Below are positions 3,771-45,349 of a stretch of 48,709 nt of DNA, in pieces (the stretch's first letter is position 1; each line of letters begins with the position of its first letter). The DNA comes from Minisyncoccia bacterium (GTDB lineage: Bacteria > Patescibacteriota > Minisyncoccia > Phycocordibacterales > UBA918): positions 222,549 through 271,257 of the forward strand of contig JBKJIT010000003.1 of assembly GCA_046598345.1 (NCBI GenBank), in the 5' to 3' direction. Below the pieces are notes generated by a model. That model searched no databases, was not told where the DNA came from, and worked only from the letters and a program-made list of their open reading frames with translations. A program made the position numbers and the translations under genes.

Positions 3771-4325
3771 ATGGAAAAAGTTGTAATGGGAACATTTGAT
3801 TCACTCGCAGATTCAGAGAAGTTAATTGAGTATATTAAGAATGAACTCGCAGTTGGGGATGCAGATATTTCCTATATCTATCGAAATAGTAAAGGAAAGA
3901 TCGAAGAAGTGAGTGACGGAGAAGTGACCAATGCCGGTGAAGGTGCTGCAACTGGTGCGGTTGTGGGAGGCTCAATTGGTGCGCTTGCTGGTCTCGCGAC
4001 TATTGCAGGAATTATTCCTGTTATTGGCCCTATTTTCGCCGCTGGAACACTCATTTCTGCGCTTGGCATTAGTACTGCAGGTGCGGTAGGAGCAACTGCT
4101 GCAGGAGCGCTTACGGGCGCAATTGCGGGAAGTATCATTGGTGCTCTTACAAATCTCGGTGTGGGAGAAAATGAAGCAAAGATATATGAGCAACGGGTTG
4201 AAGCGGGGGATGTGTTAGTGATGATTGAAACGGATGAGGAGAATCAGTCTGACATTGAGCAGGCGCTTACGAAGTTTGGGGCGGAGACAGTCCAAGTTTT
4301 CTCACCAAAAGTAGCCTACGCTTAG
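3771..4325 (+). CDS. General-stress-type membrane protein with glycine zipper (YflT/DUF1269-like)
   Basis: GAATGAVVGG...IPVIGPIFAAG...GAIAGSIIGALTNLGV...AKIYEQRVEAGDVLV. Confidence 0.75.
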   Translation: MEKVVMGTFDSLADSEKLIEYIKNELAVGDADISYIYRNSKGKIEEVSDGEVTNAGEGAATGAVVGGSIGALAGLATIAGIIPVIGPIFAAGTLISALGISTAGAVGATAAGALTGAIAGSIIGALTNLGVGENEAKIYEQRVEAGDVLVMIETDEENQSDIEQALTKFGAETVQVFSPKVAYA

Positions 4326-4339
4326 AACATATTTTAATT

Positions 4340-4430
4340 CCCCAGCTACTTTGTTGTTTTCGTCATTCGAAACTTCATCGTAACAGTAGTACGTCTCAGT
4401 TTTTCATTCCTCAACGCCTCGTATCTGGGG
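4340..4430. repeat. Structured intergenic element, copy A (81-nt core 4346-4426)
   Basis: CTACTTTGT-4-TTCGTCATT-6-TTCATCGTA-7-TACGTCTCA-19-CTCGTATCT inside ccccag/ctgggg arms. Confidence 0.85.
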
Positions 4431-4448
4431 TTTACAATAAGTTCTCCA

Positions 4449-4496
4449 AATGAACTCAAGAAAATCCTGCATTAGCAGGATTTTCTTGAGTTCATT
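4449..4496. repeat. Perfect 22-bp inverted repeat (4-nt loop)
   Basis: aatgaactcaagaaaatcctgc-atta-gcaggattttcttgagttcatt. Confidence 0.9.
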
Positions 4497-4513
4497 CAGT
4501 ACACTCTACGTTT

Positions 4514-14662: not shown

Positions 14663-15940
14663 ATGAAGACAGAACAAAAAAACATCATTGCATATGTCAT
14701 GAATTTACCTTCGGATGCTATTCCAAGCATTCGTCGATATGGGCGTAGCATTGATAAAAAATTCAAGGTAATGCTCATTTGGGATACAAATGTCAAAACG
14801 GAAAAAGATAAAGATGCATATCAGGGATTAGATATTTTTCTCCCCATTGATCTCTCAAAGCCAAATGCTATCGCTGAAGCCCTTGCACCGTATCAGTCGA
14901 AACTCTGTGCCATTTCATGTCGCACAGAATCATACATGGCTCGCTTTATTCAAGTGATTCCCCATGTGCCGTATTTGCGAACACCTACGACAGAATCGCT
15001 TAAGTGGGCTTCAGACAAACTTGAGATGCGCCGCCGCTTTGCGCTCCTTGCACCAAAATTTTCTCCCAAGTATGCAGTCGTAAAAGAAAATACATCATCG
15101 GAACGAAGGCGTGTCATAGAAAAGATTAGATTCCCGCTCATTGTGAAGCCTACTAACCTCGCTCAAAGTCTTCTGGTATCAATTTGCTATCACGAAGAAG
15201 AATTTAAAAAGGTACTCACCAACGCTTTTATAAAAATTCAAAAAATATACGATGAAAATGGACGTATTGAGGCTCCAAAAATTATTGCTGAGGAGTTTAT
15301 GGATGGTGATATGTATTCGGTTGATGCATATGTAAATTCACGCGGCAGTATATATTTTTGTCCAATGGTTAAGGTGGTGACGGGAAAAATGATTGGTCAT
15401 GATGATTTTTTTAATTATCTCCATATGTCCCCGACAGCGCTTAAAAAATCTTCAATTGAAAAAGCTCATACTGCAGCAGAGGCAGGTATTCATGCTCTTG
15501 GGCTTAGAAACACGACTGCGCATGTCGAACTTATGAAAGTTGATGATGAGTGGAAGCTCATTGAGATTGGTCCGCGTATAGGAGGATTTAGACACAAGCT
15601 TCACGAACTTTCCTGCGATATCGATCACTCACTCAATGATATTCTTATCCGGTTGCCGAAGCGTCCAATTCTTCCCAAGAAATGCAAAGGGTATGCTGCA
15701 ACCCTCAAGTGGTATCCAAAAAAAGAGGGTATCATCACAAAACTTAAGGGTATTAAAAAGTGCCGCGATCTTAAATCGTTTGTTGATATTAACGTAGTGA
15801 AAAAAGTGGGTGATCGCTGTCGATTTGCCAAAAATGGAGGAAAGGCGGTATTTACAGTCACACTATTCAATGTTGAACGCTCGAAGCTTCTTGCGGATAT
15901 ACGACGAGTTGAGCAACTGATTAACATTGAAATAGCTTAA
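14663..15940 (+). CDS. ATP-grasp enzyme (L-amino-acid-ligase-like)
   Basis: DKLEMRRRF, FPLIVKP, IIAEEFMDG..YSVD, AHVEL, KLIEIGPRIGG. Confidence 0.87.
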   Translation: MKTEQKNIIAYVMNLPSDAIPSIRRYGRSIDKKFKVMLIWDTNVKTEKDKDAYQGLDIFLPIDLSKPNAIAEALAPYQSKLCAISCRTESYMARFIQVIPHVPYLRTPTTESLKWASDKLEMRRRFALLAPKFSPKYAVVKENTSSERRRVIEKIRFPLIVKPTNLAQSLLVSICYHEEEFKKVLTNAFIKIQKIYDENGRIEAPKIIAEEFMDGDMYSVDAYVNSRGSIYFCPMVKVVTGKMIGHDDFFNYLHMSPTALKKSSIEKAHTAAEAGIHALGLRNTTAHVELMKVDDEWKLIEIGPRIGGFRHKLHELSCDIDHSLNDILIRLPKRPILPKKCKGYAATLKWYPKKEGIITKLKGIKKCRDLKSFVDINVVKKVGDRCRFAKNGGKAVFTVTLFNVERSKLLADIRRVEQLINIEIA

Positions 15941-16060
15941 TCCTTCTCAAAACGTCTGCCTACTTCGGCAGCTTCGTCATAAAGAAATTCATCGTAGCAT
16001 CAGTACGCCTCATTTCTTTATGACTCGCTTACTCGTATCCAGAGCGTTTTGAGTAGGATT
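15939..16060. repeat. Structured intergenic element, copy B (81-nt core 15960-16040)
   Basis: CTACTTCGG-4-TTCGTCATA-6-TTCATCGTA-7-TACGCCTCA-19-CTCGTATCC; inner 13-bp perfect stem gtcataaagaaat/atttctttatgac; outer arms aatcct.ctcaaaacg / cgttttgag.aggatt. Confidence 0.88.
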
Positions 16061-16149
16061 AATTAGTTTTAGAATGCCTGCTGAGACTTGCGATGTAATC
16101 GCAGAATGACGTACTCATTAGGTACTTTAGGGTGATATACTGATGATAT

Positions 16150-18376: not shown

Positions 18377-19612
18377 ATGGAAAAAACTGAACTGAAGAAG
18401 TTTCCGGATGATTTCTTCTGGGGCGCGGCGTCAGCGTCATACCAAGTGGAGGGCGGCATCGAAAATACTGACTGGGCACAGGCCGCACGTGAAGGAAGAG
18501 TGCCTCCATGCGGCATTGCCTGCGATCACTACAATCGGTATGAGGAAGATTTTGATATTGCGAAGTCCTTGGGGCACACCGCACACCGTATGTCTGTCGA
18601 ATGGGCGCGGATTGAGCCAGAGGAAGGAAAGTTTAATTTGGAGGCAATACAGCATTATCAAGACGTTGCTAAGGCCCTTCAGGCGAGAGGAATACATCCA
18701 GGTATTACCCTCTGGCACTTCACGCTACCTCTTTGGTTTTCTGAGTCTGGAGGGTTTGAGCGAAAGGATGCCCCAGAAATTTTTGCCCGTTACTGTGCAT
18801 TTGTGGTTGAACATCTCAAGGACTACTGCCATCACTACTCGACCATGAATGAGCCAATCGTTTTTGCTTCTAATGGTTGGATGCGTGGCACATGGCCTCC
18901 GTTCAAACGCTTCCTTCTTCTCGATGGTATTTCAATAACCAATTCAGGTAGGCAGCATGAGGCAAGGTACAAAAAGGGAATACGACCATTCTTTTTATAT
19001 TTACATGTGGTGAAGAATCTTGCACGAGCACACAATGCAGCGTACGTCGCTATCAAGCGAGTGCTTCTCGCAAGTGACGTGAGTGTGGTAAAGCATGTGA
19101 TTCTCTTTCATGCCAACAGAAATCCCTTGAATCGAGTTGTTGCAAAATTCATGAACTGGTGGTGGACACATTGGTTTATGGGTATGGTGCATGATAAGTG
19201 TGATTCCATTGGTCTGAATTACTATTTTCATAGAAAGTTCGGTGACACACGAACGTACGAGAAAAGTGATATGAACTGGGATATTTACCCTGAGGGTATT
19301 TACGACTGCTTGATGATGCTGAAACGCTATAATAAACCGCTGTATGTTGCTGAGTCAGGAATTGCCGATGAAAAGGATGTGCATCGAGGGGATTACATTA
19401 CAAATCAGGTACGGGGAGTGTGGCGAGCGATTCAGGAGGGGGCAGATGTCCGCGGGCATTTCTACTGGTCACTCCTCGACAACTACGAATGGGCGCTGGG
19501 ATTTGAGAAACGGTTCGGACTCGTAGAAATTGACTATACTACGCTCGAGCGGAAGATACGCCCATCTGCGTATGTATACAAGCAAATTTGCACTTCTAAT
19601 GCTGTAGAATAA
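18377..19612 (+). CDS. Glycoside hydrolase family 1 (beta-glucosidase-like)
   Basis: FFWGAASASYQVEGG, DHYNRYEEDF, SVEWARIEP, TMNEP acid/base, YVAESG nucleophile, WSLLDNYEWALGFEKRFGL. Confidence 0.96.
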   Translation: MEKTELKKFPDDFFWGAASASYQVEGGIENTDWAQAAREGRVPPCGIACDHYNRYEEDFDIAKSLGHTAHRMSVEWARIEPEEGKFNLEAIQHYQDVAKALQARGIHPGITLWHFTLPLWFSESGGFERKDAPEIFARYCAFVVEHLKDYCHHYSTMNEPIVFASNGWMRGTWPPFKRFLLLDGISITNSGRQHEARYKKGIRPFFLYLHVVKNLARAHNAAYVAIKRVLLASDVSVVKHVILFHANRNPLNRVVAKFMNWWWTHWFMGMVHDKCDSIGLNYYFHRKFGDTRTYEKSDMNWDIYPEGIYDCLMMLKRYNKPLYVAESGIADEKDVHRGDYITNQVRGVWRAIQEGADVRGHFYWSLLDNYEWALGFEKRFGLVEIDYTTLERKIRPSAYVYKQICTSNAVE

Positions 19613-19740
19613 TAAAGAACTTAAATGTTCGCGCATTTCTTTGTCGTTGCGCGGATGTGCTCCACGCGAGGTAGGTAACTACCTCTTGGTCGCCCATCCC
19701 GCTTACTCCTCGAACTGTACAGAACCTTTAAGTTCTTTAT
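19612..19740. repeat. Divergent relative of the structured element (copy E)
   Basis: 14-bp perfect outer arms ataaagaacttaaa/tttaagttctttat; ~82-nt core from TTTCTTTGT to CTCGAACT with a central GAGGTAG-gtaa-CTACCTC hairpin. Confidence 0.55.
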
Positions 19741-19752
19741 GTAATCTCGCGA

Positions 19753-25840: not shown

Positions 25841-25914
25841 ATTGTCGAGACAAGAGAGGGTGCCCTGGGGTACAAGGTGAATTGTCGAGACAAGAGAGGG
25901 TGCCCTGGGGTACA
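25841..25914 (+). repeat. 34-bp perfect direct repeat, period 40
   Basis: attgtcgagacaagagagggtgccctggggtaca at 25841-25874 and 25881-25914. Confidence 0.95.
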
Positions 25915-25922
25915 CTATTCCT

Positions 25923-26612
25923 ATGGAAAAACAGCGTGTCGCCTTTTTTGATATTGATGGAACTATATTCCGCTCCAGTCTCCTTGTTGAGTTAGTGAAT
26001 AGACTTGTAGCTGATGGAGTCTTTCCCGAGACGACACGCTCTCTATATCAGTCTGCGCATGAGGCGTGGCAGAATCGAGAGGGTACATATGAAACGTACA
26101 TACAAGGAGTGATTAAAGCCTTTGTGGAAAATCTGCGAGGGGTGCACTATGGTGCCTTGGCTGACATCGGACGCATGGTTGTGCATGAGCAAAGCAAGCA
26201 CGTGTATCGCTACACGCGAGATTTAGTTTCAAATCTCAAAGCAGAAAATTACTATCTCGTTGCAATTTCTCAATCACCCAAATTTATTCTTGATGATTTT
26301 TGTGACCACTATGGTTTTGATAAAGTGTATGGGCGCGTTTATGAAATTGGTCCCCTAGATCGGTTTACTGGTGAAGTCGCAGAACTTGAACTTATCCAAG
26401 ACAAGGCAAAGATTGTACGCCGTGTATTTGAGCGCGGGGATTATAGTGAGGATGACTCCATGGGAGTGGGGGATACTGAAGGAGACATCCCACTCCTCGA
26501 ATCAGTGGCGATGCCTATTTGTTTTAATCCCAACATGCAGCTGTATACGTATGCGAAAGGAAAGAAGTGGCCGGTTATCATAGAACGAAAAGATGTCGTC
26601 TACACGTTGTAG
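25923..26612 (+). CDS. HAD-IB family hydrolase (SerB-like)
   Basis: AFFDIDGTIFR motif I, ISQSP, K, GVGDTEGDIPLL motif IV. Confidence 0.92.
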   Translation: MEKQRVAFFDIDGTIFRSSLLVELVNRLVADGVFPETTRSLYQSAHEAWQNREGTYETYIQGVIKAFVENLRGVHYGALADIGRMVVHEQSKHVYRYTRDLVSNLKAENYYLVAISQSPKFILDDFCDHYGFDKVYGRVYEIGPLDRFTGEVAELELIQDKAKIVRRVFERGDYSEDDSMGVGDTEGDIPLLESVAMPICFNPNMQLYTYAKGKKWPVIIERKDVVYTL

Positions 26613-26728
26613 TCTTTAAAACACTCATCTGCTTCGTTAATTTCATCCTTCAAATACTCACCGTATAGATATACGACTCGTATTCTCACGACTCATTGCC
26701 TCGCATCTAAGCACTTTAAAGACTACAA
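26607..26728. repeat. Structured intergenic element, copy C (80-nt core 26629-26708)
   Basis: CTGCTTCGT-4-TTCATCCTT-6-CTCACCGTA-6-TACGACTCG-19-CTCGCATCT; 14-bp outer arms ttgtagtctttaaa/tttaaagactacaa include the HAD stop codon. Confidence 0.88.
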
Positions 26729-26740
26729 AAGATATTAATA

Positions 26741-27553
26741 ATGAATCGCAAGGAACAAAAATTTGTAAACGAAGTATGGGAGTACTACAGGCGCCACGGA
26801 AGGCAGAGTCTTCCGTGGCGCCTCACCCCAAACCCGTATCACATTGTGGTGTCAGAAATCATGCTCCAACAGACACAGGCTGATCGGGTGATTCCTAAAT
26901 ACAAGAGTTTCTTAAAGCGTTTTCCTACTTGGAAAGCACTCGCGCGTGCACCACTCGGAGATGTGTTGCGGGAATGGCAGGGGCTGGGGTATAACCGGCG
27001 TGGCAAAATGCTCCACGAGCTTGGACGAGAAGTGTCGCAGAATTATCGAGGTACGCTACCAAAGGATGTAGAAACACTTATCAGTCTTCCTGGAATCGGA
27101 CCATATACTGCTGGTGCAGTACTTGTGTTTGCATTTAATACACCTGTCCCAATTATTGAGACAAATATTCGGAGCGTATACCTTCACCACTTCTTTCTGG
27201 ATGAAACTGATATTACTGATGCTGAAATAGTACGATTAATCGTACTAACCCTTGACGTTAAAAATCCTCGTGAGTGGTACTACGCACTCATGGATTATGG
27301 AGTATACATAAAGAAGACGTACGGGAATCCGAACAGGAGGAGCAAGCACTATGCTTCACAATCAACATTTAAGGGTTCAGATAGAGAAATTCGCGGAGCA
27401 ATACTACGCGTACTCAGTGAGCAACCTTATACACGTGAAAAACTACTCAAGCTACTCCCGTTCGAAGACATTCGTATCGATGCGCAACTCGTGAAGCTAA
27501 TGAAAGAGCGTATGATTATACAAACATCAAAAAAGTTTTCGCTTCCAGGTTAA
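26741..27553 (+). CDS. mutY: Short MutY-like adenine glycosylase (no Fe-S motif, no NUDIX domain)
   Basis: LPWR, VSEIMLQQTQ, WQGLGYNRR, HhH LISLPGIGPYTAGAV, IETNIR; WYYALMDYG is not followed by any Cys. Confidence 0.85.
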   Translation: MNRKEQKFVNEVWEYYRRHGRQSLPWRLTPNPYHIVVSEIMLQQTQADRVIPKYKSFLKRFPTWKALARAPLGDVLREWQGLGYNRRGKMLHELGREVSQNYRGTLPKDVETLISLPGIGPYTAGAVLVFAFNTPVPIIETNIRSVYLHHFFLDETDITDAEIVRLIVLTLDVKNPREWYYALMDYGVYIKKTYGNPNRRSKHYASQSTFKGSDREIRGAILRVLSEQPYTREKLLKLLPFEDIRIDAQLVKLMKERMIIQTSKKFSLPG

Positions 27554-33572: not shown

Positions 33573-35210
33573 ATGGCAAAACAAATAATGTATGGAGAGG
33601 ATGTAAAGAAGCGACTGAAGGCTGGCGTTGATGCTGTCGCGAATGTGGTGAAGGTAACGATCGGTCCTCGCGGTCGAAACGTGATCATTGATAAAGGCTA
33701 TGGCGGACCAACAATCACGAACGATGGTGTTTCAATCGCGAAGGAAATAACCCTTAAGGACAAGTTTGAAAACATGGGGGCGGAGATCATTAAGGAGGTT
33801 GCGAGTAAGACGAATGACCTCGCGGGAGACGGAACGACTACAGCAACCATTTTGACGCAGGCGCTCGTCGATGAAGGATTCCGACAGACAACGATGGGAG
33901 TAAACCCACTCGCAGTACGTATTGGTATGGAGCACGCAGCAAAGGATGTGGTTGCGGCGCTCAAGGAGATGGCTATTAAGATTAGTAGCACGGAAGAAAT
34001 TAAGCAGGTTGCAACTATTTCTGCGGAAAATGCTGAGATAGGCGCCAAAATTGCTGAGACGATTGAAAAGGTAGGGAAGGATGGCGTGGTAACTGTTGAG
34101 GAATCACAGTCGTTTGGAATTGAAACAGAATTTACAGAGGGTATGGAATTTGATCGTGGGTACGTTTCTCCGTACATGATCACAAATCCTGAGCGCATGG
34201 AAGCAGAGTATAAAAATGCGCTTATTCTCGTGACTGACAGCAAGATTTCTTCTGCGAAAGAAATTCTCCCAGTACTTGAAAAGGTGGCTCAGAGCGGAAA
34301 GAAAGAACTTGTCATTATTGCAGACGACATTGAAGGTGAGGCGCTTACGACATTTGTGCTCAACAAACTACGTGGAGGGTTCTCTGTGCTTGCTGTGAAA
34401 GCACCAGGGTATGGCGATAGAAAAAAAGAAATGCTCCAGGACATTGCCATCACGACCGGTGGGCAGTTTGTTTCAAGTGAGGTTGGACTAAAACTCGAAA
34501 CAACAGAACTGAGTCACCTAGGAAAAGCATCACGTGTGGTGTCAACGAAGGATAAGACAGTTATTGTAGGTGGCGAAGGTGAAAAGAGCGCCATTGATGC
34601 GCGTGTGCAGTCACTTCGTGCGCAGCTTGAAACGACTGATTCCAAATTTGATAAAGAAAAACTTGAAGAGCGAATTGCGAAGCTCTCAGGTGGTGTAGCT
34701 GTTCTCCGCGTGGGGGCAGCAACTGAAACTGAAATGAAGTACCTGAAATTGAAGATTGAAGATGCGGTCAATGCGACGAAGGCAGCGATTGAGGAAGGTA
34801 TCGTTTCAGGAGGAGGAACCTCACTCGTAAAAGCAGCACGCATCGTTGAAGGAAATGTACGGAAAGACCTCGGCCGCGAAGAGCTCATTGGGTACCGCAT
34901 TGTACTTAAAGCGCTTGAAGAACCACTGAAGCAGATTGCGCAGAACGGCGGAAAGGATGATGGGGCAGTGATTGTGTCGAAGATTAAAGAGGCGGGAGGA
35001 AATGCGGGATACGATGCAGCAGAAGGCATTATTATCGATGACATGATTAAGGCGGGTATTATTGACCCAGTAAAGGTAGAGCGGGCGGCAGTTGAGCACG
35101 CGGTTTCAGCAGCCGGCATTCTCCTCACGAGCGAGGCAGCGATTGCTGATGAGCCTGAGCCGGAGAAGGCTCAGATGCCGGATATGGGCATGGGAGGCAT
35201 GGGAATGTAA
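33573..35210 (+). CDS. groEL: Chaperonin GroEL
   Basis: TIGPRGRNV, ITNDGVSIAKEI, AGDGTTTAT, GMEFDRGY, ERIAKLSGGVAV, GGM tail. Confidence 0.99.
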   Translation: MAKQIMYGEDVKKRLKAGVDAVANVVKVTIGPRGRNVIIDKGYGGPTITNDGVSIAKEITLKDKFENMGAEIIKEVASKTNDLAGDGTTTATILTQALVDEGFRQTTMGVNPLAVRIGMEHAAKDVVAALKEMAIKISSTEEIKQVATISAENAEIGAKIAETIEKVGKDGVVTVEESQSFGIETEFTEGMEFDRGYVSPYMITNPERMEAEYKNALILVTDSKISSAKEILPVLEKVAQSGKKELVIIADDIEGEALTTFVLNKLRGGFSVLAVKAPGYGDRKKEMLQDIAITTGGQFVSSEVGLKLETTELSHLGKASRVVSTKDKTVIVGGEGEKSAIDARVQSLRAQLETTDSKFDKEKLEERIAKLSGGVAVLRVGAATETEMKYLKLKIEDAVNATKAAIEEGIVSGGGTSLVKAARIVEGNVRKDLGREELIGYRIVLKALEEPLKQIAQNGGKDDGAVIVSKIKEAGGNAGYDAAEGIIIDDMIKAGIIDPVKVERAAVEHAVSAAGILLTSEAAIADEPEPEKAQMPDMGMGGMGM

Positions 35211-35329
35211 ATCGGCAAAATTACTGAATCTACGTTGTCACACTTCGAAAAAAGACCCTCATCGTACGATGTGTACGCCTTGGGTCTTTTTTCTTGTGCT
35301 CCTAGTATCTTCAGCAATTTTGCCGATTT
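35209..35329. repeat. Structured intergenic element, copy F (81-nt core 35230-35310)
   Basis: CTACGTTGT-4-CTTCGAAAA-6-CTCATCGTA-7-TACGCCTTG-19-CTAGTATCT; 14-bp outer arms aaatcggcaaaatt/aattttgccgattt; 12-bp inner stem gaaaaaagaccc/gggtcttttttc. Confidence 0.85.
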
Positions 35330-35409
35330 CATGTAAGTGAGTTTTGACTTTTGCTCCTGCTTCGGCTACGCTCACAACGTATTCTGTTCTTCAACACTAA
35401 GGAGAGATT

Positions 35410-36571: not shown

Positions 36572-36943
36572 ATGGAAAAAATTTATTACAACAAGCTCTG
36601 TCGAGACAAGGTACCGGACATCATCCGAGAAAAAGGTTTTGAGTGTGAAGTTAGAGAAACGGATCACGACGAGTATAAGCGAGAAATTATTCGGAAGGTT
36701 TTTGAAGAGGCGAGTGGAGTTTCAAACCACGACGGTAAAGAACACCTCCTTAAGCAGCTTGCAGATTTGGTTATTACGCTTGACGCGGTGACTGCTGAGT
36801 ACGGCATTACTGACGATGAGCTCGATGCGGCTGTAGAAAAAAGCTATGAAGAAAAAGGGGGATACGAAGATCGTCTTTATCTTTCATGGTCCTCAGATAC
36901 GGATTATAGCTCGCATGACCAAGGACATGGTTTTGATGACTAA
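36572..36943 (+). CDS. MazG-like nucleoside-triphosphate pyrophosphohydrolase family protein
   Basis: YNKLCRDKVPDII...EY...KVFEE...LAD...EEKGGY pattern. Confidence 0.75.
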   Translation: MEKIYYNKLCRDKVPDIIREKGFECEVRETDHDEYKREIIRKVFEEASGVSNHDGKEHLLKQLADLVITLDAVTAEYGITDDELDAAVEKSYEEKGGYEDRLYLSWSSDTDYSSHDQGHGFDD

Positions 36944-37065
36944 AACTCATTTCAAAACCGCTATCTACTTTGTCACCATCGTCCTTCAAACACTCATCAT
37001 ATGAGTATATGCCTCATGTTCTCAGTCCTTGGTTCCTCGTATCTAGGGAGTTTTGAAATGAGTTT
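36943..37065. repeat. Structured intergenic element, copy D (80-nt core 36965-37044)
   Basis: CTACTTTGT-4-ATCGTCCTT-6-CTCATCATA-6-TATGCCTCA-19-CTCGTATCT; 16-bp perfect outer arms aaactcatttcaaaac/gttttgaaatgagttt. Confidence 0.9.
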
Positions 37066-38779
37066 AAGCTATGTAAAAAAGACTCTAATGTGCGTATGTG
37101 TAGTATTTTCTTTACTACCGCTATTTGTACAAGCTGAGTATATCCAATCCTTTGATGCAACAATTGAACTCCAAGAAGACAGTTCTTTCACGGTAACCGA
37201 GGTTATCGAGTACGTCTTTACTGAGGAGCGTCATGGGATCTTTAGGTACATTCCTACCATCCACCCTGAGCCTGCGTCCTCGGGATTACGTGAGCTATAC
37301 CTTGATGTGGAACTTACAGGAGTCAGTATGGATGGGAAAACAGTGCCATACGAGGTGACCGATGGGCGGAGTGAATTCTATGTAAAGATTGGAGACCCAG
37401 ATGCAACCATTAACGGAACTCATACATACACCATTACGTATGAGATTACTGGGGGTATGTTGTATAATCCTGCAACTGAGCTCTATTGGAATGTAACGGG
37501 GAATGACTGGGAAGTGCCAGTGCGCGCGGCGACAGGTCGCATTGTTGGACCTGATGGAATTTTTGCCGCTGAACGAACCTGCTACCGTGGTGTGCGGGGG
37601 ATGACGGGTTCATGTGGCAGTGTGAAGCAAGAAGGGAAAGATATTGTATTTACTTCAACTCAGCTCGAGCCTGGGGAAGGAATGACGATTGCGCAGGGAC
37701 TTAATCCAGCGATGGTAGAAAAAGTAGTGCTCGAACGGTACAAGGCTTTTCTTCTCAGTATTATTGTCGTGGGCGTTTGGCTTCTCGGTCTCATTATTTT
37801 TGTATTTCGATATACGACTGCGCATAGTACAGGGCGCACCATCATTCCTGAATACGAACCGTACCCGAACGTGAAGCCCATGTACGCCGGCCTCCTTATG
37901 GATGGTAAACTTGATCCGCGAGACATCGCCGCATGTATTGTCTTTCTAGCGGAGCAAGGGTATCTTAAGATTAAGAAGATCGATAAAAAGGTACTTTTCT
38001 TTTTCGAGGTTGATGATTATGAACTCAGTGTAGTCAAAGTACCCGATGATGGCATAAGTCATTTTGAAAAAAGCATACTTACTATTTTCTTCGATAGTGT
38101 GAGTGTGCCAGCCGGCACAACGATCACTCTTAGTCAACTTAAAAATCCATCGGTTGGCAGGCAAAATTACATTGAAATTGAATCCTTACGCAAGGAGCTT
38201 GAGGAGGATCTAGAAGCGTCTGGATTCTTTCAGAAGAATCCAATTGTAAAGACTGCGGGGATTATACTCGGTGCCAGTATTGTGTTGGGTATGATCTTCT
38301 TTGCCACGCCCCTCAGTTCCTATCTTTCATACTTGGGATTAGGTTCACTCCTCGTTGCGGTCTGCACGTTTCTCACCATGATTGTGCTCATCGTATTCGC
38401 AAGACGGAGGAGAACACGAAAGGGCTACGAAGCACGAGATCACCTCCGCGGATTTAAGGAATTCCTTAGCGTCACGGAAAAAGATCGATATGAATTTCAT
38501 AATGCACCAGAAAAAAGTCCCGAGCAGTTCATGGCGTTTCTTCCGTATGCCATAGCGTTTGGGGTTGAAGAAAAATGGGCAGAGGCATTCAAAGACATGA
38601 CTCTACCGACACCAGGTTGGTACGACGGAGGAAACATGGCATCATTTTCAGCGGTAAATCTTTCGAGTAGTCTAGGGGCATTTTCAATTGCATTTGCGGC
38701 ATCCTCCGGCGCCTCAGCGTCGTCAGGCGGCGGTTCGTCAGGAGGCGGTGGGGGTGGAGGAGGGGGAGGCTCATGGTGA
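37058..38779 (+). CDS. DUF2207 family membrane protein
   Basis: EYIQSFDATI...VTEVI...HGIFR, ELYWNVTGNDW, FLPYAIAFGV..KW, C-terminal GGGSSGGGGGGGGGGSW; the start is 37058 or 37088 rather than 37001. Confidence 0.9.
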   Translation: MSLSYVKKTLMCVCVVFSLLPLFVQAEYIQSFDATIELQEDSSFTVTEVIEYVFTEERHGIFRYIPTIHPEPASSGLRELYLDVELTGVSMDGKTVPYEVTDGRSEFYVKIGDPDATINGTHTYTITYEITGGMLYNPATELYWNVTGNDWEVPVRAATGRIVGPDGIFAAERTCYRGVRGMTGSCGSVKQEGKDIVFTSTQLEPGEGMTIAQGLNPAMVEKVVLERYKAFLLSIIVVGVWLLGLIIFVFRYTTAHSTGRTIIPEYEPYPNVKPMYAGLLMDGKLDPRDIAACIVFLAEQGYLKIKKIDKKVLFFFEVDDYELSVVKVPDDGISHFEKSILTIFFDSVSVPAGTTITLSQLKNPSVGRQNYIEIESLRKELEEDLEASGFFQKNPIVKTAGIILGASIVLGMIFFATPLSSYLSYLGLGSLLVAVCTFLTMIVLIVFARRRRTRKGYEARDHLRGFKEFLSVTEKDRYEFHNAPEKSPEQFMAFLPYAIAFGVEEKWAEAFKDMTLPTPGWYDGGNMASFSAVNLSSSLGAFSIAFAASSGASASSGGGSSGGGGGGGGGGSW

Positions 38780-42389: not shown

Positions 42390-42474
42390 GGAGGCGTCGC
42401 ATAGTGGCCTAGTGCGCTCGCTTGGAAAGCGAGTAGGGTGAAAGCCCTCGGAGGTTCAAATCCTCTCGCCTCCG
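42390..42474 (+). tRNA. tRNA-Ser(GGA), CCA not encoded
   Basis: Acceptor stem GGAGGCG/CGCCTCC, anticodon arm CTCGC-TTGGAAA-GCGAG, long variable arm, T-loop TTCAAAT, discriminator G. Confidence 0.97.
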
Positions 42475-42604
42475 CATCTGTTTTATAAGCCGACTGTTGT
42501 GGTCGGTTTTATAAAATAGGAGGACTGGATTTGAAGCTGTTCAGAGATAGTTTTGGAGTCATCAGACGAACAAAAATATCCTGAACGGGTACTGAACATG
42601 TAAT

Positions 42605-42696: not shown

Positions 42697-42747
42697 AAAG
42701 CGAGTAGGGTGAAAGCCCTCGGAGGTTCAAATCCTCTCGCCTCCGCA
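42697..42747 (+). repeat. 51-bp copy of the tRNA-Ser 3' half (att-like)
   Basis: Identical to 42426-42476. Confidence 0.95.
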
Positions 42748-42756
42748 AAGGTTGTT

Positions 42757-42823
42757 AAACTATACATTGTCCTAAAAACTGAAAGACGGTATCGTTAGAG
42801 GCATGTCAATGATGAAACATTTT
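42757..42823 (+). repeat. 67-bp direct repeat, copy 1 (copy 2 at 44782-44848)
   Basis: aaactatacattgtcctaaaaactgaaagacggtatcgttagaggcatgtcaatgatgaaacatttt. Confidence 0.95.
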
Positions 42824-42846
42824 GATGCCATAGGGCTGACCTATGT

Positions 42847-44674: not shown

Positions 44675-44781
44675 AACCAGGACCCACGTACCTTAAAATA
44701 ACCCACGAAAGTCTACTAAAATGGCCTTACGGTGTCTCACCACTATGGTACTGAACCCGAGCGGCCCGCACAAATTTGTTA

Positions 44782-44848
44782 AAACTATACATTGTCCTAA
44801 AAACTGAAAGACGGTATCGTTAGAGGCATGTCAATGATGAAACATTTT
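44782..44848 (+). repeat. 67-bp direct repeat, copy 2 (promoter region + first codons of the 44828 gene)
   Basis: Identical to 42757-42823. Confidence 0.95.
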
Positions 44849-45349
44849 TATCTTATTCTTTTCTCGACACTGCTCGTGGGGTTTTTTTCTGGTGTCTTTG
44901 TGTTTTTTATGACGAGAGAACCGGAAGTCAGCACGCCCCCGGACGACACGCAGACCGGATTCGAGGTTGTTGTGAGCGCGTATGGAGGGTGTGAACGCAT
45001 AGGATGTTCTTTCTATCGAATTTCCGAGGATGGTACGTACACGTTGGTGACGCAGGGTCTAGAGTCTCAGAACGAACGGCTCGAAGGGGAAGTTACAGGA
45101 ATGCAAAGAGAAGATCTTAAGGGTCTTATGGATGAGACAGATTTTGCAGAGGTCGCGGCATCACGCTTTGAAGGGGAGTGTCCTATAATCTACGATGGTG
45201 TTGCATACCGTTTTGAAATTCAAAAGGAGGGAAACAATTACAGTTTTGATTCGTGTAGGGAAGATCTCGAGCTTCCACTCTTTATAGAACTGGAGAGTTA
45301 CTTTGATGCATTTAGAAGCATTCATGAGGATGAGCTCGAGGATATGTAG
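44828..45349 (+). CDS. Membrane-anchored hypothetical protein with two Cys pairs
   Basis: TM helix, YGGCERIGC, GECPIIYDG...FDSC. Confidence 0.75.
   Translation: MSMMKHFYLILFSTLLVGFFSGVFVFFMTREPEVSTPPDDTQTGFEVVVSAYGGCERIGCSFYRISEDGTYTLVTQGLESQNERLEGEVTGMQREDLKGLMDETDFAEVAASRFEGECPIIYDGVAYRFEIQKEGNNYSFDSCREDLELPLFIELESYFDAFRSIHEDELEDM

Follow-up and report, generated by a model that had tools for sequence, protein, structure and literature searches.

A Minisyncoccia bacterium with a 0.94-Mb genome carries a family of ~130-nt hairpin repeats, most of which sit directly behind genes. We consider it probable that the family is a non-autonomous mobile hairpin: its enclosing arms are its own stem, the stem is later matched to the end of the neighboring gene, a strand-specific enzyme acts on it, and copies are retained at stop codons. 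The evidence comes from a 48,709-nt window (the whole stretch of DNA analyzed), the remainder of the genome and related genomes.

Hairpin repeats behind genes

Five strong copies and one divergent copy were found in the window with a profile and a covariance model, all on the minus strand. Copy C (26602-26733, 115.7 bits) lies at the junction between a HAD-family hydrolase gene (25923..26612, plus strand) and a mutY-like gene (26741..27553, plus strand). Here TTGTAGTCTTTAAA (26607-26620) and TTTAAAGACTACAA (26715-26728) form a 14-nt inverted repeat, 100% complementary, with 94 nt between the two halves. The HAD gene ends inside the 5' arm, which takes in its last codon, TTG, and its stop, TAG (26610-26612); CTACAA (26723-26728) in the 3' arm is the reverse complement of this codon and stop. 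The mutY-like gene starts 12 nt past the 3' arm. The outer stem, which we designate P1, has its 5' arm at 26607..26627 (plus strand), the outer 14 nt of which (26607-26620) are perfectly paired, and its 3' arm at 26708..26728 (plus strand). The core between them (26628..26707, minus strand) comprises P2 (TGC/GCA), P3, a variable stem P4, the apical hairpin CGTAT..ATACG and conserved purine-rich bottom-strand loops. Just upstream of the HAD gene, at 25841-25914, there are also two exact 34-nt direct repeats (ATTGTCGAGACAAGAGAGGGTGCCCTGGGGTACA), 40 nt apart.

The remaining strong copies are copy A (4319..4450, 112.2 bits), copy B (15934..16065, 99.5 bits), a copy directly 3' of groEL (35203..35335, 104 bits), whose P1 begins within the groEL stop TAA, and a copy between the ORFs at 36572-36943 and 37001-38779 (36938..37070, 112.4 bits), where the name lemA/DUF2207 for the cluster is that of the initial annotation only. 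The divergent sixth copy (19609..19743, 31.3 bits) belongs to a TTTC/GAAC subfamily, and its P1 starts from the last base of a stop TAA (19610-19612). All six are co-oriented with the upstream gene, and each has its own outer inverted repeat: 10 nt at 90%, with 6 perfect, in copy A (4340-4349/4421-4430; ~22 bp with mismatches), 18 nt at 94% in copy B (15937-15954/16045-16062), 19 nt at 95%, with 14 perfect, in the divergent copy (19612-19630/19722-19740), 25 nt at 88%, with 14 perfect, in the groEL copy (35209-35233/35305-35329), and 16 perfect in the copy at 36938-37070 (36943-36958/37050-37065). The initial annotation had described each copy as enclosed by a perfect inverted repeat of its own that often reaches into the upstream stop codon; this is confirmed for the perfect 14 bp at 26607-26728, and the five other window copies likewise have arms of their own. 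Directly 3' of copy A lies a near-perfect long palindrome, GAACTCAAGAAAATCCTGC atta GCAGGATTTTCTTGAGTTC (4445-4500), which looks like a bidirectional terminator.

Genome-wide, our model of the repeat (R1) gives 51 matches in this 97%-complete genome (G000), and ~0.7% of its DNA is a single hairpin repeat, despite the extreme streamlining of CPR/Patescibacteria genomes. The copies are scattered over all four contigs, behind such housekeeping genes as groEL, polA, mreB and pilC, and 36 of the 45 copies found by the HMM are directly 3' of an ORF on the same strand. The first base of the stop codon mostly falls 19-23 nt before the core, at the outer edge of P1, and in a number of copies deeper within that stem, at -6 to -16. 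Across 20 congeners the model finds between 0 and 69 matches per genome, with 0-4 in some of them. The repeat has thus multiplied within one family of Paceibacteria-type CPR bacteria: 22 of the 24 genomes of that family have it, and among 16 other families of the order it was found in just two.

The enclosing inverted repeat is the basal stem of the hairpin

All genomic copies fold into one architecture, namely the outer stem P1, a 3-bp P2, a short P3, the variable P4 and the apical hairpin CGTAT..ATACG, with the helices set apart by conserved loop sequences. P2 is TAC/GTA and covaries to TGC/GCA, TCC/GGA and TTC/GAA. In an alignment of 36 copies (A1), compensatory double changes occur in 18 of the 25 predicted pairs, and the covariation score is 0.604 vs 0.206 in shuffles. 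With P1 included, 82% of the cells of A1 pair, as compared to 59.6% in shuffles (0/500 reach 82%), and pairing drops to 35-45% when the partners are slid by one to three columns. In 32 of 43 copies, pairing in P1 extends outward from the core for 20-25 nt; column by column, it is at background just past ~22 bp. Chance falls far short of this, the left flank of one copy pairing with the right flank of another over a mean of only 8.7 nt. Within P1, A4 in the 5' arm and T3-4 in the 3' arm form blocks at fixed columns, and the outer columns are variable save for a weak TA(A/G)AA...TTTTA tendency. Given this single architecture and the definite length of P1, what encloses each copy is not a separate target feature but the bottom of a ~130-nt rod-like hairpin, its basal stem of 20-25 bp. 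That loop motifs and stem length are so constant suggests a role in the cell beyond the needs of a purely selfish element.

A search of the window against Rfam brought only RNase P and one tRNA to the gathering threshold, and around the copy at 36938-37070 the best match scored 18 bits vs a threshold of 43 bits. We also considered a small minus-strand ORF in the core; on reading by eye, its frames are not conserved among copies, and coding would not account for the compensatory stem changes. Two copies in congeners, at HAD-mutY in G008 (L005) and after polA in G006 (L141), have an extra ~100-nt insertion in the variable middle stem and look like nested or expanded variants.

The arms travel with the element

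The arms of the window copies appear unrelated to one another, and the initial annotation had offered two explanations: that a mobile core enters the loop of a pre-existing palindrome or terminator, or that insertion makes an inverted copy of its target. Comparison of orthologous loci bears on both. HAD-mutY synteny is kept in 19 congeners. In eight of these the junction is empty, with 0-30 nt between the genes and neither a palindrome nor an arm, whereas G018 has an apparently orthologous copy of copy C and other congeners have copies of a different subfamily. At the same junction in G014 (L012), a subfamily-2 copy sits exactly at the stop codon, in place of the 5' half of an older family-1 copy; the remaining 3' half of the older copy is still ~85% identical to the intact G018 copy, and copies therefore get replaced at the same gene end. 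The end of PilC is occupied in 12 of 21 congeners, by at least five subfamilies, and that of MreB in two independent cases. Several empty PilC ends carry ordinary A-tract/stem/T-tract terminators unrelated to any arm, and empty groEL ends of metagenome relatives likewise carry canonical terminators that bear no relation to the arms.

Young copies reveal what the element brings with it. Subfamily X has four copies on four contigs of G018, and subfamily Y has three copies in G018 and one in G014. Within these subfamilies, copies at different loci are 62-91% identical in their arms and 84-97% identical in their cores. At two of the X/Y loci, the orthologous G014 sequence lacks the whole hairpin and has no palindrome and neither arm. 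From the shared arms and the empty sites it follows that the element carries its arms with it and that gain or loss affects the hairpin as a whole. In the genome under study, by comparison, P1 identity is at background (0.32) even between copies whose cores are 77-89% identical; the unrelated arms of the window copies reflect their age. Thus, the earlier statement that arms are unrelated between copies is accurate for the six old copies of the window and fails for the young X and Y copies.

These comparisons bear out the mobility of the repeat, which the initial annotation had proposed: copy numbers range from 0 to 69 among congeners, 8 of 19 HAD-mutY junctions are empty, and G018 copies at unrelated loci are 84-97% identical. 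The same spread in copy number, empty junctions and near-identical dispersed copies refute a purely ancient, immobile 3'-UTR structure. The comparisons give no support to insertion into the loop of a pre-existing hairpin. There is no palindrome at the eight HAD-mutY junctions or the two G014 sites, no empty palindrome with matching arms was seen at the empty junctions among the HAD-mutY and groEL 3'-end loci, and the terminators at PilC and groEL are unrelated to the arms. Nor would a fixed P1 length and a conserved A4/T4 block be expected from insertion into varied host hairpins. Searches for near-identical strains with empty alleles found none, whether by exact-protein look-up or among 80 metagenome loci with groEL identities of at most 82%, and the next-best HAD protein was 71% identical. 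A likeness between the arm at L028 and the empty site at L029 was dropped because their groEL genes are only 69.5% identical.

Stems of old copies match the ends of their genes

The MreB protein ends in AKR followed by the stop in 20 of 20 complete congener ends. Behind this gene in the genome under study, the copy has a perfect 16-bp arm, GCC AAG CGT TAA AATT, with the complementary 3' arm AATTTTAACGCTTGGC; an independent MreB copy in G017, from another subfamily, pairs with that organism's own AGA TAG. PilC ends in GS(V/I) and the stop in many congeners, and our copy there has a 19-bp perfect stem that begins 7 nt inside the gene, while the PilC copies of G010, G002 and G007 are each paired to the last codon and stop of the gene beside them. 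Similarly, the paired sequences at HAD are TTGTAG and CTACAA in our copy and CTCTGA and TCAGAG in the G018 orthologue. In all, the 3' arms of our copies complement 9 nt plus TAA of native sequence at MreB, 7 nt plus TAG at PilC and 3 nt plus TAG at HAD. Genome-wide, 18 of 36 copies have a P1 that continues past the stop for 3 nt or more in the upstream direction, where chance would give a few percent by a rough estimate. As a sequence pattern, then, the outer 5' arm of old copies is native gene sequence and the 3' arm its complement, tracking species-specific codons.

Young gene-end copies differ in this respect, as their P1 ends with the element itself and does not run into the gene (e.g. L165). 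Changes within stems can also be followed in the young subfamilies. The subfamily X stem in G018 is imperfect, with GCATGTCC in the 5' arm vs a 3' arm whose complement is GCGTGGTC; in our X copy (C3:100393), the 5' arm is the exact complement of the subfamily 3' arm, giving 14 perfect bp. Subfamily Y copies show one compensatory A-to-T/T-to-A double change.

The proposal that insertion itself writes an inverted copy of the target is thus half right. The 3' arm is indeed the reverse complement of native codons and stop at MreB, PilC and HAD, but young copies bring complete arms and the two empty sites have neither. On these grounds, the inverted copy of the gene end more probably arose once the element was in place than during insertion itself. 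The pattern is that, in an element settled by a gene end, the stem sequence changes while pairing is kept, the outer stem moves onto the last codons and stop of the gene, and the non-coding 3' arm becomes their reverse complement. This probably comes about through arm-to-arm templated correction, a form of template switching within a quasi-palindrome; purifying selection would let only the non-coding arm change, and some constraint would hold the stem to ~22 bp. Ordinary compensatory selection for a ~22-bp stem is a possible alternative to templating.

We think it unlikely that the hairpin is a functional single-stranded nucleic acid from the antisense strand, with a dedicated mechanism that rewrites its stem into an inverted copy of the last codons and stop of the gene. 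If true, this would be a mobile element that docks on gene ends by templated stem replacement, with a structure possibly coupled to translation termination or 3'-end formation. Taken literally, the original model (a mobile core of ~85 nt that enters the loop of a palindrome or terminator, or a reaction that writes a ~22-nt inverted target duplication) is improbable. The arms of the six window copies do look unrelated (P1 identity 0.32 even for cores 77-89% identical), 3' arms complement native codons, and in one relative (L023) the terminator hairpin behind groEL overlaps the stop. Yet this model does not fit full-length arms common to young copies at unrelated loci, empty sites with no palindrome and neither arm, a P1 of fixed length with a conserved internal A4/T4 block, or young gene-end copies whose P1 stops at the element boundary, as at L165.

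The structure forms on the strand antisense to the gene

To establish which strand folds, we compared pairing on the two strands. Isolated stem mismatches, read on the gene-sense strand as a strand-neutral count, comprise 29 A.C vs 8 G.T, and the inner pairs of A1, read on the bottom strand, include 57 G.U vs 8 A.C. The minimum free energies of 43 copies sum to -2040 kcal/mol on the bottom strand vs -1594 kcal/mol on the top strand; copy C by itself folds at -45 kcal/mol (z = -5.7) vs -22.1 kcal/mol. At the P1/P2 and P4/apical-stem junctions, the bottom strand has tandem G.A/A.G, whereas the top strand has pyrimidine-pyrimidine oppositions. Because of the asymmetry between G.U and A.C and the tandem G.A motifs, the relevant structure is the one on the strand antisense to the upstream gene. 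Mutational bias was considered as a source of the A.C excess and rejected by reasoning, rather than computation, in that deamination of an exposed sense strand would give the reverse bias. A retroelement origin of the bottom-strand signal was set aside as the genome has no RVT_1 match.

Orientation follows the gene. Eight copies run against the local GC skew, and every one of them has the orientation of its upstream gene; at one convergent gene pair two copies, 340 nt apart, point towards each other. Replication-strand-dependent orientation of the IS200/IS605 type is ruled out because orientation tracks the gene even against GC skew. The folded form is most likely single-stranded DNA, on which a strand-specific enzyme would act.

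A host-serving module at the 3' end (a bidirectional terminator, an mRNA 3'-end stabilizer or an RNA-protein site), with hairpin and stem length kept by selection and spread only secondary, is a tentative alternative that we hold to be rather unlikely, and one that partly overlaps the explanation that we favor. Such a role would fit the position of the repeat, which at PilC and groEL occupies the spot where relatives have canonical A-tract/stem/T-tract terminators, as well as the conserved A4/T4 block at a fixed position around the inner hairpin, the conserved loop motifs, the strong covariation and the reoccupation of the same gene ends by different subfamilies (PilC in 12/21 congeners, MreB in two independent cases). 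However, it is the mRNA-antisense strand that pairs far better, and this strand has no evident promoter; moreover, some congeners have only 0-4 copies, and copy A has a terminator-like hairpin of its own next to it (4445-4500). In a separate observation, the region downstream of PilC in many congeners (L103-L120) holds a conserved promoter-like pair, TGTCCACA ... CGTATAAT, followed by GGTAACCACAC(T/A)ACGTGGAGTAA, which is probably a small RNA or leader.

Association with stop codons

In the young subfamilies the 5' terminus is T(T/A)AGA(A/G)C, and in gene-sense orientation the element thus opens with a stop triplet. The stops at 36 copies are TAA in 20, TAG in 15 and TGA in one, vs 57%, 28% and 15% genome-wide, which makes TGA scarce (p = 0.047). 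Of the young copies, only about half are found at gene ends, as compared to 84% (36/43) of the old ones, in a genome that is ~87% coding. Albeit with small numbers, this difference suggests that the enrichment at stop codons and in gene-sense orientation results from the retention of harmless insertions rather than from strict targeting. The survival of such insertions may have been helped by the TA(A/G) that the element carries at its own 5' terminus.

Duplication of a TA target that regenerates the stop was also considered. Such a duplication would account for copy B (gctTA[ATCC...GGAT]TAAttag) and for the scarcity of TGA stops, but not for TGA-associated copies in relatives or for the flanks of young copies. 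The flanks of eight young copies show no consistent duplication, with termini of T/TA + AGA(A/G)C ... G(T/C)TCT, and two empty sites are too diverged to resolve the matter.

Candidate mobilizing enzymes

Searches of the 97%-complete genome gave no match to PF13358 (DDE_3), PF00665 (rve), PF01609 (DDE_Tnp_1) or RVT_1. Three Y1 (IS200-like) proteins are encoded, at G000:C3:178913-179548, C2:84326-84973 and C4:334532-335110 (loci L148-L150). The closest NCBIfam family is the REP-associated tyrosine transposase model, below its cut-off, and we refer to these genes as RAYT-like. Each is bracketed by inverted small hairpins of its own, CATAGG-N5-CCTATG, CGGAGG-N5-CCTCCG and ATGGCCGA-N9-TCGGCCAT, which occur in 5-10 copies per family and are unrelated to the ~130-nt repeat. 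None of the Y1 genes has an R1 match directly beside it; the closest one, of 43 bits, is ~0.9 kb downstream of Y1-2 (L149). Among the relatives, G003 has neither repeat nor Y1, G019 (18 matches) and G022 (15) have the repeat without Y1, and G013 has Y1 without the repeat, and the two do not go together cleanly across genomes. The Y1 genes were downgraded as the mobilizing enzyme once their own cognate hairpins had been found. They are the only strand-specific, hairpin-recognizing candidates found, and their link to the repeat is weak.

Several further observations concern these genes and their surroundings. TACGATG, a 7-nt sequence, is common to the loop of the Y1-3 hairpin and the most conserved loop of the repeat (p ~0.05, only a lead). 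The Y1 gene on C3 lies between pilin and prepilin-peptidase genes, ~1.3 kb from the copy at the end of PilC, and by coordinates a Y1 gene is within ~2 kb of pilC in six congeners. A copy of the hairpin that brackets the gene at C3:178913-179548, which occurs ~10 times genome-wide, is found in the window at 42829-42845 (CATAGGGCTGACCTATG), in the region of a tRNA-Ser island. Beside the tRNA-Ser there are an 88-nt direct repeat, 90% identical (42739-42826 and 44764-44851), and a 51-nt stretch of the tRNA 3' end that is repeated exactly (42426-42476 and 42697-42747).

Comparison with known repeats

In its general kind, the ~130-nt repeat belongs with MITEs, ERICs and REPINs. The ERIC/IRU and Correia (NEMIS) elements are imperfect palindromes of ~100-150 bp in transcribed intergenic regions of Enterobacteria, Vibrio and Neisseria. 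Like them, the repeat is a single long imperfect hairpin of similar size, non-coding and non-autonomous, with dozens of copies just after genes and a copy number that varies between related species. Unlike them, it has an unrelated sequence and belongs to another phylum; its stems diverge freely while its internal loops are conserved, its pairing is strongly strand-specific, its basal stem overlaps the stop and native codons, and no consistent TA duplication or cognate transposase was found for it. MITEs are deletion derivatives of DDE insertion sequences. Terminal inverted repeats common to copies, as in a MITE, are present in the young X and Y subfamilies (62-91%) and lost in old copies; unlike the case of a MITE, no cognate DDE transposase was found in this genome for PF13358, PF00665 or PF01609.

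REPs, as described by Di Nocera et al. 2013 (PMC3733652), are palindromes of 20-40 bp with an unpaired GTAG or CGTC tag that flank the RAYT gene and lie mostly downstream of coding regions. The present repeat resembles REP/REPIN-RAYT systems as an extragenic palindrome 3' of genes, in a genome with RAYT-like Y1 genes and with a single-strand hairpin as the likely substrate. It differs in that the unit is ~130 nt and the bottom-strand 'GTAG' lies in a covarying helix, the N of the bottom-strand G-N-A-G being paired with column 30 and covarying AU/GC/UA/CG. As a further difference from RAYT systems, the small hairpins on either side of the three Y1 genes belong to other families.

The attC sites of integrons have variable sequence and a conserved fold, are recombined as the bottom strand and stand directly after cassette ORFs, and the Vibrio cholerae repeats measure 123-126 nt. 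Our repeat shares with them a length of ~130 nt, the conservation of structure over sequence, bottom-strand-specific folding and a position immediately 3' of the ORF, often overlapping the stop. Nonetheless, it is highly improbable that these are structure-specific recombination sites of the attC type: the copies are dispersed on four contigs behind groEL, polA, mreB and pilC and form no cassette array, and their ends have no R''/R' core boxes (RYYYAAC ... GTTRRRY), the conserved sequence being internal. As for an intrinsic terminator, the A4 and T3-4 blocks do flank the inner hairpin, but the stem is an irregular rod of 100 nt and a terminator scan makes no call.

Template-switch mutagenesis in quasi-palindromes is an established mechanism that perfects imperfect inverted repeats. 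It would explain why arms are perfect within a copy, differ between copies and, in the 3' arm, copy the gene end. It is a general mutational process and not an element family, and its action here is suggested by sequence patterns.

The literature that we searched contains no description of such a repeat family in CPR bacteria, and the hairpin family looks undescribed. What is unusual about it is the combination of a plastic stem of fixed length that recruits coding sequence, a structure on the antisense strand and the lack of a transposase among the families searched. In genome annotation, its copies risk being taken for terminators, small RNAs or regulatory hairpins, and model R1 detects them family-wide. 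The repeat is a clean natural example of a stem that keeps its length and near-perfect pairing through complete sequence turnover, even recruiting coding sequence in the process. From it one may learn how palindromic repeats last in genomes and move when they lack a recognizable transposase, and how very compact genomes arrange their gene ends.
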